Shown piece after piece: positions 1 through 21,990 of a stretch of 64,000 nucleotides of DNA. The stretch is from a virus. Position 1 is the stretch's first letter. Every line of letters starts with the position of its first letter. The notes below the pieces were generated by a model, which was not told the origin of the DNA, did not search any database, and saw only the letters and a program-made list of their open reading frames with translations. The stretch covers positions 1 to 64,000 of the IMG/VR virus record IMGVR_UViG_3300032116_000122; one strand, 5' to 3'. The position numbers and the translations under genes were made by a program.

Positions 1-306
1 TGGTGCTTTCGCGCTGGTTGTCTTGATGTGCTACATCACGTCACATTACGATTTGGCCAGCACTACACGACAGTAACAGTGTTAGGATTACCTACCATAT
101 TGTAGGCCTGTTACTACGCTTGCCGTGATACTGCCCACGGCTGCAACCTGTGTAATATAGAAACGGGAAGCCATTACACGTGCTTTGGTTTATGAACCAC
201 TACCCTATGGGATACACCCAACACGTTTCTATTGCGTGCCTGCACACTTATGGTCCTGCAGAACCATGCACTTAGTGCCTAGGTCGGCTGTACATCACCG
301 CCCAGA
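1..306 (-). ncRNA. Large, densely structured non-coding RNA (GOLLD-like candidate), truncated by the window edge
   Basis: Paired segments: 11-17/57-63, 72-79/108-115, 122-127/136-141, 150-156/173-179, 250-256/261-267, plus a 9-bp pseudoknot 157-165/224-232. C-A mismatches on + become G-U pairs on -. No ORF over most of the span; lies downstream of a tRNA. Confidence 0.55.
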
Positions 307-308
307 TC

Positions 309-524
309 TCAGCCCTTGAAGTTGCGACGAATCGCTTCCGGATCACCGATCCAGAAGAAGCCGGTGCCACAACTCTTGGCAAGCCACTCGTCAAGGAGTT
401 TATGATAGAACTCCTTGTCGACCAGCGGGCTGGACTCTTTCTCCAGCTCACCACATTCGTGACACACGTCACTGTGCACAGGACCCTTGCGGGTCATGTA
501 CTCTATCTCACCACAAAAGCGCAT
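309..524 (-). CDS. Small hypothetical protein with CxxC
   Basis: 71 aa; purine-rich RBS (AGAAAGGGGG) upstream; CHEC motif. Confidence 0.6.
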   Translation of the reverse strand: MRFCGEIEYMTRKGPVHSDVCHECGELEKESSPLVDKEFYHKLLDEWLAKSCGTGFFWIGDPEAIRRNFKG

Positions 525-550
525 TTTGCGCCCCCTTTCTGTTAGTGGAG

Positions 551-623
551 TGGGGCGTGTAGGGATCGAACCTACGACCGAGGAATTATGAGTTCCCTGC
601 TCTAACCACTGAGCTAACGCCCC
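551..623 (-). tRNA. tRNA with CAU anticodon (probably Ile2, otherwise elongator Met)
   Basis: GGGGCGT-TAGCTCAGTGGTTAGAGC-A-GGGAA-CTCATAA-TTCCT-CGGTC-GTAGG-TTCGATC-CCTAC-ACGCCCC-A; canonical cloverleaf, paired 1:72 so not initiator, no encoded CCA. Confidence 0.95.
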
Positions 624-625
624 AA

Positions 626-766
626 GTGAGCATTTTTACGACATACTCAGGTCGGCGTGGTGCATAACGGATGCGGCTTATCCACGACTACCGCACCGGC
701 CCTCCGCATAATATTACCCGCAGAGGGGTGGGTTGAGCAGTATTGTTATGCCTTGCTCAGAGGCAT
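626..766 (-). ncRNA. Tandem H-type pseudoknots directly upstream of the tRNA
   Basis: ATGCCT-C-TGAGCA-AGGCAT-AACAATAC-TGCTCA (766-734) and CGAC-C-TGAGTA-T-GTCG-TAAAAA-TGCTCA (654-627) share architecture; hairpin and a third possible pseudoknot lie between them. Confidence 0.55.
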
Positions 767-834
767 CTGATTGACGGGTGGCAAGCCCCAGTTAGTCCCG
801 ACAGAAGGGGGAAGTCCTGTCTCGTGCCTTTTGA

Positions 835-1083
835 TCAGATCTTGTTGAGGCAAAGCCGAGGCTTCGCCACGTACTGACCGATTCCGATGTTTGCACCCCT
901 GTAGATGCACTGGAGGCGCTCAGCCACGGGCTGGTTCTCGGGCGTGACACGTGGCCCACTCGCTTGGGTCAGCCAAGTCAAAGCGGTCAGGGCGTCTGCC
1001 CTGAGCCTGAGCCACTCACCATGGCTTGAGGGGTTTTCCCCCTCCAAGAGGAGCGCCAACTCCTCAATTTCCTTGATGTTCAT
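835..1083 (-). CDS. Hypothetical protein
   Basis: ATG 1083 preceded by AGGAAGGG; 82 aa; GC-rich codons. Confidence 0.6.
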   Translation of the reverse strand: MNIKEIEELALLLEGENPSSHGEWLRLRADALTALTWLTQASGPRVTPENQPVAERLQCIYRGANIGIGQYVAKPRLCLNKI

Positions 1084-1157
1084 TATTTTTTGCCCTTCCT
1101 GATAATGCTCCACTCAATCATGGTGGAGTCAATGGTTGATACAGTCAATAAGATCTT

Positions 1158-1336
1158 GCCAGTGCATGGATCAGCCAGTCTCGCAAGGGGGTAAGACGGC
1201 GATCAACACACACTGGCTTATGCTATGTATACGCCTATGTGCTAATAGCAACTACAAACGGGGGGTGAGTAGTGCTAAAGCAGACGTTGCACTCAGATAA
1301 CGTTGTACAACGAAAGCATAGGCCCATACATAGGCA
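1158..1336. other. Structured intergenic segment (long stem-loop plus multibranch)
   Basis: GCCAGTG 1158-1164/CACTGGC 1211-1217 with nested pairs; TATGTAT 1224-1230/ATACATA 1326-1332; GCCTATG 1233-1239/CATAGGC 1317-1323. Confidence 0.35.
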
Positions 1337-1341
1337 CAAGT

Positions 1342-1416
1342 TGTGACATTTGTCACATGGTAGTGACAATTGCCACACGGTGAGACATTTGTCACATGGC
1401 TATGACAATTGTCACA
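1342..1416. promoter_or_regulatory. Four tandem 16-bp palindromic boxes matching the CRP/GlxR consensus TGTGA-N6-TCACA
   Basis: tgtgacatttgtcaca (1342), agtgacaattgccaca (1362), tgagacatttgtcaca (1381), tatgacaattgtcaca (1401); period 20/19/20. Confidence 0.7.
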
Positions 1417-1500
1417 CTAGGCACCTCGTACTGGACGGCGCGCCGTTTGCGACGCTATCCGGTCCAGCCAGACGCAGGGAGCAGAGATGCTCCACACACT

Positions 1501-20430: not shown

Positions 20431-21990
20431 ATGCAACAAGTGGCAGAAGAAGGTTCGATACCAGAGGACATCGAGGCGATTGAGCTCGATGAAACATCCC
20501 AGGAATTCATTGATCAGTTAGTTATGAAACTCATCCTCTTTACAGAGGAATTTTGTAACGTAACGTTTTTCCCATACCAAATACCAATTGCGTATCGAAT
20601 GATTGAGTCAATTGTTATTGGTGACGGTGAAGAGATTACACTTGTTGCTACCCGCCAGTCTGGAAAATCAGAAGTACTATCAAACGTGCTCGCATCTATG
20701 ATGGTTATTCTTCCTAAGTTGTCAAAAGTCTATCCAACCTGGCTTGGAAAGTTTGATAAAGGATTCTGGTGTGGGGTGTTTGCTCCAGTAGAAGACCAGG
20801 CTGATACGGTATTTAGCCGTATTGTAAATAAACTTACTAGCGATCACGCTATGGATTTTCTCCTTGACCCAGAAATCGATGACAAAGCCACATCTGGTGG
20901 GTCTCGTGGTAAGGGAAGGATCATAAGCCTTAAGCATTCAGGGTCTTTGTGCCGTATGCAAACCTGTAACCCTAAGGCAAAGATTGAATCTAAAACCTAC
21001 CATTTTGTGCTAGTAGACGAGGCTCAGGAAGCCGACGAGTTTATGATCACTAAATCAATCAAACCCATGTTGGCGTTCAACAACGGGAGTATTGCCCTTA
21101 CTGGAACCGCAACTCGTAACAAATCCTATTTTTACAAAATGATCCAGTTCAACAAACGCCGTGATGTCAACTCTCGCCGTAATCACCGTCAGTGCCATTT
21201 TGAGTACGACTGGAAGACAGCCGCAAAGTACAATGACAACTACGCAAAATTCATATCTAAGGAAAAAATAAGAATCGGAGAAGATTCTGACGAGTTCCAA
21301 ATGTCCTATTGCAATAAATGGATTCTTGAAAAGGGAATGTTTGTTTCAGATGAACGTCTATCACGCATGTACGACCAGTCAATGGGCCTCGTAAAGCAGT
21401 GGTGGAGAACACCAGTTGTCGTTGGAATTGACGTAGCAAGATCTAATGACTCGACAGTAGTAACGGTTTGTTGGGTTGATTGGGATCATCCTGATGGCTT
21501 TGGGTTCTATGAACATAGAGTCCTAAACTGGTTGGAGATTAACAATGAAGAATGGGAATCCCAGTATTTTGAGATTATTGACTTTCTTCGCAATTATAAT
21601 GTGTACAGAATTGGTGTTGATGCCCAGGGTGTTGGCGGTGCTGTAGCAGAGCGGTTGCAAATTTTGCTTCCAAAAATTGAGGTCCTTGCTGTTACCTCAG
21701 ACGCCAAAAACCAAAATGAACGTTGGGTTCATCTAACTGAACTTATACAGCGTGACCAACTCATCATCCCTGGTCACTCAAAAGCACGTCGTACACGATC
21801 ATGGAAACGCTTTAATCAGCAAATGTCAGACCTAGAGAAGGTGTACAGAGGACCCTATTTATTGGCCTCAGCACCAGAAGAAAAGGGCGCTTTTGACGAC
21901 TACCCAGATTCCTTGGCTATCGCATGCGCTATGTCTGTCGCTGACACCATGCCAATGGTGACCGTATCTGAGAGTCCGTTTTTCAGATAA
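20431..21990 (+). CDS. terL: Terminase large subunit
   Basis: RQSGKS Walker A, VLVDEAQ Walker B, LTGT, VGIDVA, DDYPDS. Confidence 0.95.
   Translation: MQQVAEEGSIPEDIEAIELDETSQEFIDQLVMKLILFTEEFCNVTFFPYQIPIAYRMIESIVIGDGEEITLVATRQSGKSEVLSNVLASMMVILPKLSKVYPTWLGKFDKGFWCGVFAPVEDQADTVFSRIVNKLTSDHAMDFLLDPEIDDKATSGGSRGKGRIISLKHSGSLCRMQTCNPKAKIESKTYHFVLVDEAQEADEFMITKSIKPMLAFNNGSIALTGTATRNKSYFYKMIQFNKRRDVNSRRNHRQCHFEYDWKTAAKYNDNYAKFISKEKIRIGEDSDEFQMSYCNKWILEKGMFVSDERLSRMYDQSMGLVKQWWRTPVVVGIDVARSNDSTVVTVCWVDWDHPDGFGFYEHRVLNWLEINNEEWESQYFEIIDFLRNYNVYRIGVDAQGVGGAVAERLQILLPKIEVLAVTSDAKNQNERWVHLTELIQRDQLIIPGHSKARRTRSWKRFNQQMSDLEKVYRGPYLLASAPEEKGAFDDYPDSLAIACAMSVADTMPMVTVSESPFFR

Follow-up and report, generated by a model that had tools for sequence, protein, structure and literature searches.

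The window analysed here, a stretch of 64,000 nt, belongs to the 75.5-kb record of a myovirus from lake metagenomes that carries terminase, portal and sheath genes. Read along the minus strand, the locus of interest begins with a small ORF (ORF92, stop codon at 835) and continues through an RNA structure that we call unit 1, a hairpin, a candidate third pseudoknot and a second structure, unit 2. Unit 2 ends at 627, and 3 nt separate it from a tRNA-Met (CAU) whose 5’ end ARAGORN places at 623 – in agreement with an earlier first-pass annotation of the sequence, which had put the last unit about 3 nt before the tRNA. The tRNA is followed by a 71-aa Cys-rich ORF (ORF71). The two units are of unequal length and are spaced 107 nt apart. 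The features are listed in order along the minus strand, where R1 is a covariance model of the motif family described below and G009 and G006 are related phage records.

835-1083, minus strand: upstream small ORF (ORF92), start probably the ATG at 1083; no family match
648-830, listed as minus strand: stretch under RNA-library contigs, which themselves show no strand
734-766, minus strand: unit 1, a variant of the fold that differs in length, recognised by sequence reading and a match to the shared-frame pattern
766-761/753-748, minus strand: P1 of unit 1, 6 bp
C760-U759, minus strand: L1 of unit 1; U759 can also be drawn as the first base of P2
759-754/739-734, minus strand: P2 of unit 1, identical in sequence to the family P2
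747-740, minus strand: L3 of unit 1, 8 nt (AACAAUAC); L2 is absent
700-727, minus strand: hairpin of 9 bp with a 10-nt loop, -14.6 kcal/mol, z -2.2
656-697, minus strand: candidate third pseudoknot, 7 bp crossing 5 bp, its strings present in the sequence
627-654, minus strand: unit 2, a canonical mini-pseudoknot, with an R1 score of 38.5 bits and compensatory changes in G009 and G006
654-651/642-639, minus strand: P1 of unit 2, CGAC/GUCG, 4 bp
C650-U649, minus strand: L1 of unit 2; U649-A627 can extend P2
648-644/632-628, plus U649-A627, minus strand: P2 of unit 2, with one U-G pair
U643 and 638-633, minus strand: L2 and L3 (UAAAAA) of unit 2
550-623, minus strand: tRNA-Met (CAU), called by ARAGORN; Rfam tRNA, 71.1 bits
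309-524, minus strand: downstream 71-aa Cys-rich ORF (ORF71), last gene of an inserted cassette

Terminase relatives of the record are plentiful, and the region was compared at the DNA level with 27 of the longer related records. In the closest of them, G001 (98% terminase identity), both flanks are kept and window positions ~317-1092 are missing, with ~35 bp in their place. Thus, the block of ORF, RNA, tRNA and ORF is an inserted cassette, and by comparison of the sequences it reads as an accessory cassette with borders at gene ends. No relatives of ORF92 or ORF71 were found in viral contigs and neither ORF had a Pfam match; a homologue of ORF92 follows the knot motif in G006. When an 800-nt region was compared with cultured phages by BLAST, the tRNA alone matched. 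Upstream of the minus-strand cassette, at 1340-1420, lie four close palindromic boxes (TGTGACA-N-TGTCACA) with an operator-like look.

The first-pass annotation had read both units as compact H-type pseudoknots with different P1 sequences that nevertheless pair, a conserved P2 and an A-rich L3. All unit strings that it quoted are found on the minus strand, both units can be drawn exactly as it wrote them, and covariation across the family backs the fold. The frame shared by the two units, CTGAGYA-N8-20-TGCTCA, occurs twice in the 64-kb window and likewise twice in the whole record, where shuffled sequences lead one to expect 0.04 occurrences. Pairing in P1 and P2 is furthermore kept in homologues through compensatory double changes: G009, which has unit 2 alone, carries the P1 CGTC/GACG where the window has CGAC/GTCG, and the G006 homologue of unit 2 carries the P2 TGGGTA/TGCCCA where the window has TGAGTA/TGCTCA. 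R1 gave one full match each in G004, G006 and G009 and none in most relatives. A second, variant unit in G006 (L115, 1325-1355; R1 E-value 0.21) has a 12-nt L3 and ends 1 nt before another tRNA. Patterns tying the P2 frame to a tRNA 5’ end returned chance matches or nothing. In G009, a non-coding stretch downstream of the knot (L113, ~1310-1500) ends in a tRNA-like T-arm (GGGTTCGACTCCC) at which ARAGORN calls no tRNA.

Far more copies came from a pattern search of viral contigs in which P1 was left free. This pattern had at least 120 matches, compared to about 5 expected by chance, as estimated from the yield of another pattern search. The consensus is an H-type pseudoknot of ~28 nt, with a P1 of 3-6 covarying pairs, an L1 of CU, a P2 of GAGCA/UGCUC, an L2 of 1 nt and an L3 ending in AAAC; the P2 strands are 11 nt, or sometimes 13-15 nt, apart. 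Positions that had been free in the pattern are constrained: among the matches listed, the base before L1 is C in 117/120 copies, its partner is G in 117/120, and the final base of L3 is C in 117/120.

To score the fold, 120 distinct copies from viral contigs were aligned (alignment A1) and the ten pairs of the two-stem structure were evaluated. Paired cells amounted to 98.6%, compared to 82.8% in shuffles and 27-38% when the partners were slid. P1 pairs 2 and 3 are Watson-Crick in 100% of copies and are built from three and four pair types, respectively, while P2 pair 3 is AU in 103 copies, GC in 15, GU in two and AC in none. At P2 pair 5, CG occurs in 90 copies and UG in 30; since the U-G pairs of these 30/120 copies would be A-C mismatches on the opposite strand, the fold belongs to the sense strand. 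A structure-based scan in which only AAAC and the pairing geometry were fixed gave 212 matches, compared to 16 in reversed-sequence controls, and L1 was CU in 199 of the 212. The scan also returned the further P2 variants AAGCA, AGGUA and GAACA, all of them paired by construction of the scan. A copy from a crAss-like gut phage has the P2 UAGGCA/UGCCUA, again a double compensatory change, and some family members keep the same frame with an L3 of 8-13 nt. Conservation ends at position +26 of the motif. Covariation across these copies shows the predicted fold.

The motif extends to bacterial and archaeal assemblies, in which ~47 of 120 pattern matches had a perfect P1 (~1.5 expected); these come from many phyla and include one archaeal MAG. 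As far as sequence can tell, the mini-knot is widespread and is carried by hundreds of unrelated phages. Canonical copies matched no Rfam 15 family at any threshold, lenient E-values included, and a literature search by sequence strings and keywords found no description of the motif. The fold type is already known; neither the family nor its distribution among phages and siting at gene boundaries appears to have been described. Two single copies merit mention in their own right. In the crAss-like phage cr7_1 (L277, NC_055895.1), a stretch at 1374-1730 annotated as tmRNA, doubtfully in our view, has a knot at 1503-1530, between a tRNA-like T-arm and a tRNA-Cys. In a second phage (L271, from G033, ~1480-1500), the 3’ strand of P2 has an alternative partner, a ATGAGCAG further downstream, with which it can make an 8-bp hairpin, possibly as a switch between two folds.

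We next placed the window’s own structures within this family. L1 is CU and the family P2 is present in both units. Unit 2 is the sole full match of R1 in the window (38.5 bits, E 1.3e-9); all its lengths are those of the family, and its only departure is the last base of L3, which is A and not C (AAAA vs AAAC). The same L3 ending occurs in the G009 homologue and in one copy of the strict set (L144). In unit 1, only the 3’ half was matched by R1: its L1 and P2 agree exactly with the consensus, whereas P1 has 6 bp, L2 is missing and the 8-nt L3 ends in AUAC. Its sequence reads as that of a divergent paralogue, similar to the long-L3 variant of G006. Units 2 and 1 are thus almost certainly a canonical and a variant copy, respectively, of one phage gene-boundary motif. 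The hairpin that the first-pass annotation had placed between the units is present, as the 9-bp helix listed above. The third pseudoknot that it proposed can be drawn as described (697-656, GGTGCGG/CCGCATC crossing CGTGG/CCACG), but a nested alternative fold competes with it, and knots equally large number 21 in the 128 kb formed by both strands of the window, or ~1 per 6 kb. Homologues of the inter-unit RNA, sought as a test of the third knot, were absent from viral contigs, and metagenome contigs yielded one identical copy and chance matches.

The positions of the copies relative to genes were then examined. The motif is intergenic, with an open frame over only 5/129 copies, and the upstream gene is co-oriented with it in 183/188 cases. 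The upstream stop codon always lies at least 9 nt from the C of L1, and the mode of this distance is 9-10 nt, accounting for 29% of copies (9 nt, n=34; 10 nt, n=29). A terminating ribosome keeps the mRNA unwound only a short way past the stop codon, and with a P1 of 4-5 bp the first pair would sit approximately where this unwinding ends. Unit 1, 69 nt past its ORF stop, is atypical of the family in this respect. On the downstream side, a start codon is typically found 19-48 nt past the knot, the genes there are mutually unrelated, and the stretch directly after the knot is G-poor and C/A-rich.

A link to tRNAs, which the first-pass annotation had suggested searching for with a covariance model, is seen in motif-bearing loci, where a knot lies 3-13 nt upstream of 37/61 first-of-cluster tRNAs, most commonly at 3 nt as in the window. 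In the strict set, no tRNA lies within 150 nt upstream of the motif. Changes of coding strand were counted 22 times after the motif and 4 times before it; these strand-switch counts, like those for tRNAs, are drawn from loci selected for carrying the motif and from crude ORF calls. In two related contigs (L179, 1662-1720, minus strand, and L122), a type III hammerhead ribozyme begins 5 nt after a canonical knot. Its score of 34.2 bits is below the Rfam cut-off (E 5.7e-6), its core is intact, and a ribosome-binding site and start codon follow. When the window, its relatives and the canonical copies were searched against Rfam at gathering and lenient E-value thresholds, only tRNA and this one hammerhead scored. 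Loci carry 2-7 copies, clustered among small genes, with some arrays of two or three ~70 nt apart; otherwise the copies mostly stand alone, scattered behind ordinary genes. In one GC-rich phage (L270, from G037), three tandem knots ~70 nt apart, one with a 4-nt L2, fill 455-625 between two ORFs.

Location at gene ends raises the question of an element acting as DNA. Much as attC sites mark the ends of integron gene cassettes, the motif could fold as single-stranded DNA for cassette recombination or replication, an idea that the insertion of ~317-1092 relative to the closest relative might suggest. DnaA-box-like strings (TTATCCACA) also occur ~20-40 nt past the knot in L127, L168, L172, L208 and L235, where the motif may border a replication origin region. 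However, the orientation of the motif follows transcription, U-G pairs are common, the region is represented in RNA libraries, and the fixed placement relative to stop codons, tRNA 5’ ends and a ribozyme belongs to the RNA level. We therefore regard a DNA-level role as highly improbable.

The architecture has close parallels among RNA viruses. The -1 frameshift knots of luteoviruses (BWYV, PLRV) are ~28 nt long and have an S1 of 4-5 bp, a short L1 beginning with C, one junction nucleotide and an A-rich L3 of 6-7 nt (PMC10321173). The phage motif shares this compact H-type plan and size and may share the triplex contacts; its near-invariant loops – the CU of L1, the single nucleotide of L2 and the AAAC end of L3 – would fit a triplex-stabilised knot of the luteovirus type. 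It differs in being intergenic in DNA phages, in the absence of a slippery site, and in an S2 of 5-6 bp with conserved sequence. Stop distances of 9 and 10 nt are about equally frequent, hence there is no preferred frame relative to the stop codon, and recoding by frameshifting or readthrough was ruled out, including a luteoviral frameshift signal, which requires overlapping reading frames and a slippery heptamer 5-9 nt upstream of the knot.

A second parallel is coremin (xrRNA-C), in which a hairpin of 3-4 bp bears a YGAD or YGNNAD loop, a spacer of 10 nt is conserved and a second hairpin is indispensable (PMC6546385). Coremin and its Watson-Crick variant occur in plant and other RNA viruses and block 5’-to-3’ exonuclease (PMC6546385, PMC10321173). 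Both the phage motif and coremin have a short first hairpin, after which comes a conserved, A-rich spacer with C and a pairing segment at its end, and a proposed loop-spacer pseudoknot, and both are sited after coding regions, where coremin acts as a mechanical block. In contrast, the phage motif has an 8-nt loop (CUGAGCAW) and a 5-6-bp Watson-Crick S2, and because it is unconserved past +26, a second hairpin is not conserved. The loop and the missing hairpin led us to reject coremin identity; the window’s RNA contigs, which start upstream of unit 1 and not at it, indirectly misfit 5’-to-3’ protection as well (see below). For the luteoviral and coremin plan, mechanical toughness through triple contacts is the hallmark (PMC10321173, PMC6546385).

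Several other identities were considered and set aside. PreQ1-I riboswitches have a short P2 and a multi-nucleotide L2 with a ligand-pairing C, and lie upstream of queuosine genes; the phage motif has an L2 of 1 nt, is followed by mutually unrelated genes and, in the window and canonical copies, had no Rfam match to this family even at lenient thresholds. A riboswitch in general was rejected, and the small ligand binder that the first-pass annotation had entertained is unlikely, as copies precede tRNAs as well as unrelated genes and no riboswitch family matches. HDV-like ribozymes form a nested double pseudoknot of P1, P1.1, P2 and P3, with or without P4, but the motif has a single nucleotide where P3 would be and no Rfam match to HDV-like or theta ribozymes. 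As for promoters, no -35/-10 elements lie at a fixed distance from the motif and separate sigma-70-like promoters are found elsewhere, while a CRISPR repeat or anti-CRISPR RNA is at odds with the different P1 sequences among copies of one genome. The leader knot of the T4/T2 gene 32 mRNA, which serves gp32 autoregulation, is likewise a compact H-type knot with a very short L1. It has no Rfam model (PMC10690425). Like the phage motif it is followed by unstructured sequence and a ribosome-binding site; however, it is bound to one gene and one protein, whereas very diverse phages have the motif in front of unrelated genes and tRNAs.

In size and topology, the units had also been likened to ToxI, the antitoxin RNA of type III toxin-antitoxin systems. 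ToxI consists of repeats of ~34-36 nt, nearly identical and in tandem beside toxN, and is processed by ToxN; phages can carry mimics of it. Small pseudoknotted units of about 30-36 nt with A-rich segments are common to both, but the phage copies are dispersed and their P1 varies. The analogy fails: Tandem Repeats Finder detected no tandem repeats in 400-1200, the Rfam ToxI model had no match in the window at E up to 10, and ToxN (PF13958) had no match in the 75-kb genome, the last being weak since control genomes were equally silent. More generally, an RNA-binding regulator of phage or host origin might bind the motif, or the motif might be, as the first-pass annotation had it, an antitoxin-like or nuclease decoy. 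Loop and P2 sequences are indeed near-invariant, more so than pairing alone would require, and several copies per genome, clustered in small-gene regions and at times in arrays of 2-3 units, would suit a protein target. However, the motif is spread over phages whose hosts differ widely, and over assemblies of many bacterial phyla plus one archaeal MAG, which makes one specific protein partner unlikely; moreover, it has no constant gene neighbour, the genes that follow it are mutually unrelated, and neither identical tandem repeats nor a ToxN match, for what that silent search is worth, turned up. We give a protein site or decoy only a small chance.

To see which parts of the locus are represented as RNA, we considered RNA contigs aligned to window 1-1500, which stem from four RNA libraries of three freshwater metatranscriptome studies and show neither strand nor true ends. 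They cover two parts of this interval only, 648-830 (with further contigs at 661-825, 666-826 and 674-904) and 1-267. No contig covers 268-647, including the tRNA and ORF71, or 905-1500, and we infer nothing from these gaps. The contigs at the knots start ~5 nt past the ORF92 stop and end at 648-674, in or just before unit 2, and ORF92 is reached at its 3’ end only (to 904, 70 nt in, by one contig). What they show is a stable RNA of at least about 180 nt, with unit 1, the hairpin and the candidate third knot inside it, that is represented much more strongly than either the ORFs or the tRNA. The deepest contig ends at 648, inside unit 2 and 24 nt short of the tRNA 5’ end; this may reflect loss of coverage at a structured end or a real cut, and the pattern fits an RNA fragment with its 3’ boundary at unit 2. 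These data lend substance to part of the small-RNA cassette that had been proposed for the locus, as 648-830 is represented in RNA libraries, but unit 2 is no local oddity and belongs to a very widespread motif.

The second covered part, 1-267 (minus strand, non-coding), is matched by RNA contigs of 365-454 nt from two studies that extend past the record end. Its counterpart in G001 (20518-20850) is 76% identical and has a tRNA-Arg ~270 nt further downstream on the same strand. Neither 1-267 nor this counterpart matched any Rfam family; 1-267 is a large, abundant, unnamed RNA.

The end at 648 bears on a further reading, in which P2 stacked on P1 imitates the acceptor stem and T-arm of a tRNA, so that RNase P would cut L1 between its invariant U and the first G of P2, or an enzyme that reads tRNA ends, or a defence nuclease, would be engaged or decoyed. 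Pseudoknotted, tRNA-like ends are known from plant-virus RNAs. An invariant U stands directly before the first pair of P2, which is G-C; A follows P2 in 81% of copies, the two positions after that are C in ~50% with G almost absent, and the motif accompanies tRNAs. The deepest contig ends no more than 1-2 nt from where L1 meets P2 in unit 2, which is a weak hint. On the other hand, a full CCA follows the knot in only 21/199 copies, the stacked helix has ~10 layers rather than 12, a T-loop is absent, and triplex contacts explain the invariant C, U and AAAC equally well. Furthermore, the P1 fold, which is under selection as covariation shows, would be lost on cleavage in L1. There is a slim chance that the motif is such a mimic, and a similarly slim one that acceptor mimics, planted at gene boundaries by phages of nearly all bacterial groups, recruit RNase P as a host-independent nuclease for mRNA ‘punctuation’, or soak up defence enzymes that attack tRNA 3’ ends.

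If the knot is instead a mechanical barrier, the contigs speak to which side it protects. Acting on its 5’ side, it would block 5’-to-3’ movers such as RNase J, scanning RNase E or lingering ribosomes, and so shield or uncouple the tRNA or mRNA downstream, in the manner of coremin and other xrRNAs, at which Xrn1 and scanning ribosomes stall. This accords with an architecture shared with luteoviral frameshift knots and similar to the knot proposed for coremin, which both withstand 5’-to-3’ motors (PMC10321173, PMC6546385), with a P1 that would start at about the first position that the terminating ribosome leaves paired, and with copies placed 19-48 nt before start codons across a G-poor leader. 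However, a fragment protected from a 5’ exonuclease would begin at the knot, whereas the window’s RNA has its start ~60 nt before unit 1 and its end at unit 2, the opposite arrangement. Coremin’s defining features are also missing from the phage motif, the motif never occurs within 150 nt after a tRNA in the strict set, and Xrn1 is not stalled by BWYV-type knots in vitro (PMC10321173). A 5’-side barrier or insulator is, in our estimation, unlikely.

The reading that we favour, tentatively and at somewhat less than an even chance, is that the knot is a compact roadblock capping the 3’ end left by a cleavage just downstream. It is favoured by the combination of a knot hugging the stop codon, independent cutters just downstream of it, and a window RNA that fits a boundary at unit 2. 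The knot would stay folded just outside the reach of the terminating ribosome, and a cut would fall a few nucleotides downstream: by RNase P at the tRNA-Met 5’ end in the window, and elsewhere at other tRNAs, by the hammerhead ribozyme, or in the G-poor single-stranded spacer. The knot would then mechanically halt 3’-to-5’ exonucleases and thereby spare the upstream RNA, which in the window would be the ~200-nt structured RNA with unit 1, the hairpin and the candidate third knot.

A vertebrate precedent exists at the 3’ end of MALAT1 and MEN-beta, where a triple helix is followed by a tRNA-like RNA that RNase P cuts. There, as would be the case for the phage motif, a compact triplex-type structure lies directly upstream of an RNase P site and the cut yields a protected 3’ end. 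The folds themselves are unrelated, a U-rich clamp on an A-rich tail as opposed to an H-type knot in the phages. Several observations nevertheless weigh against a 3’-end cap. The best RNA contig stops inside unit 2, so that the knot could equally be cut or not retained, and unit 1 lies mid-RNA, 69 nt from the stop codon and not at any end. Furthermore, nearness to the upstream stop could merely reflect genome compaction, and both window units deviate at the 3’ end of L3 (AAAA and AUAC vs AAAC).

To our knowledge, how long phage transcripts are cut and which pieces survive is known for few model phages only; the RNase III sites of T7 are an example of such processing. Here, lake phages, crAss-like phages of the gut and assemblies from many bacterial phyla share a covarying element of 28 nt, which sits at gene ends, directly before tRNA 5’ ends and before a self-cleaving ribozyme. 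Its job would most likely be the sealing of the cut end of the upstream RNA, and the ‘processing signal’ that the first-pass annotation had listed among its readings of the knots remains live. If the knot does block exonucleases or motors, it would be among the smallest natural roadblocks and a compact part with which to stabilise or insulate synthetic operons. Altogether, these data suggest that the motif is a general RNA punctuation device of phages that depends little on the host.
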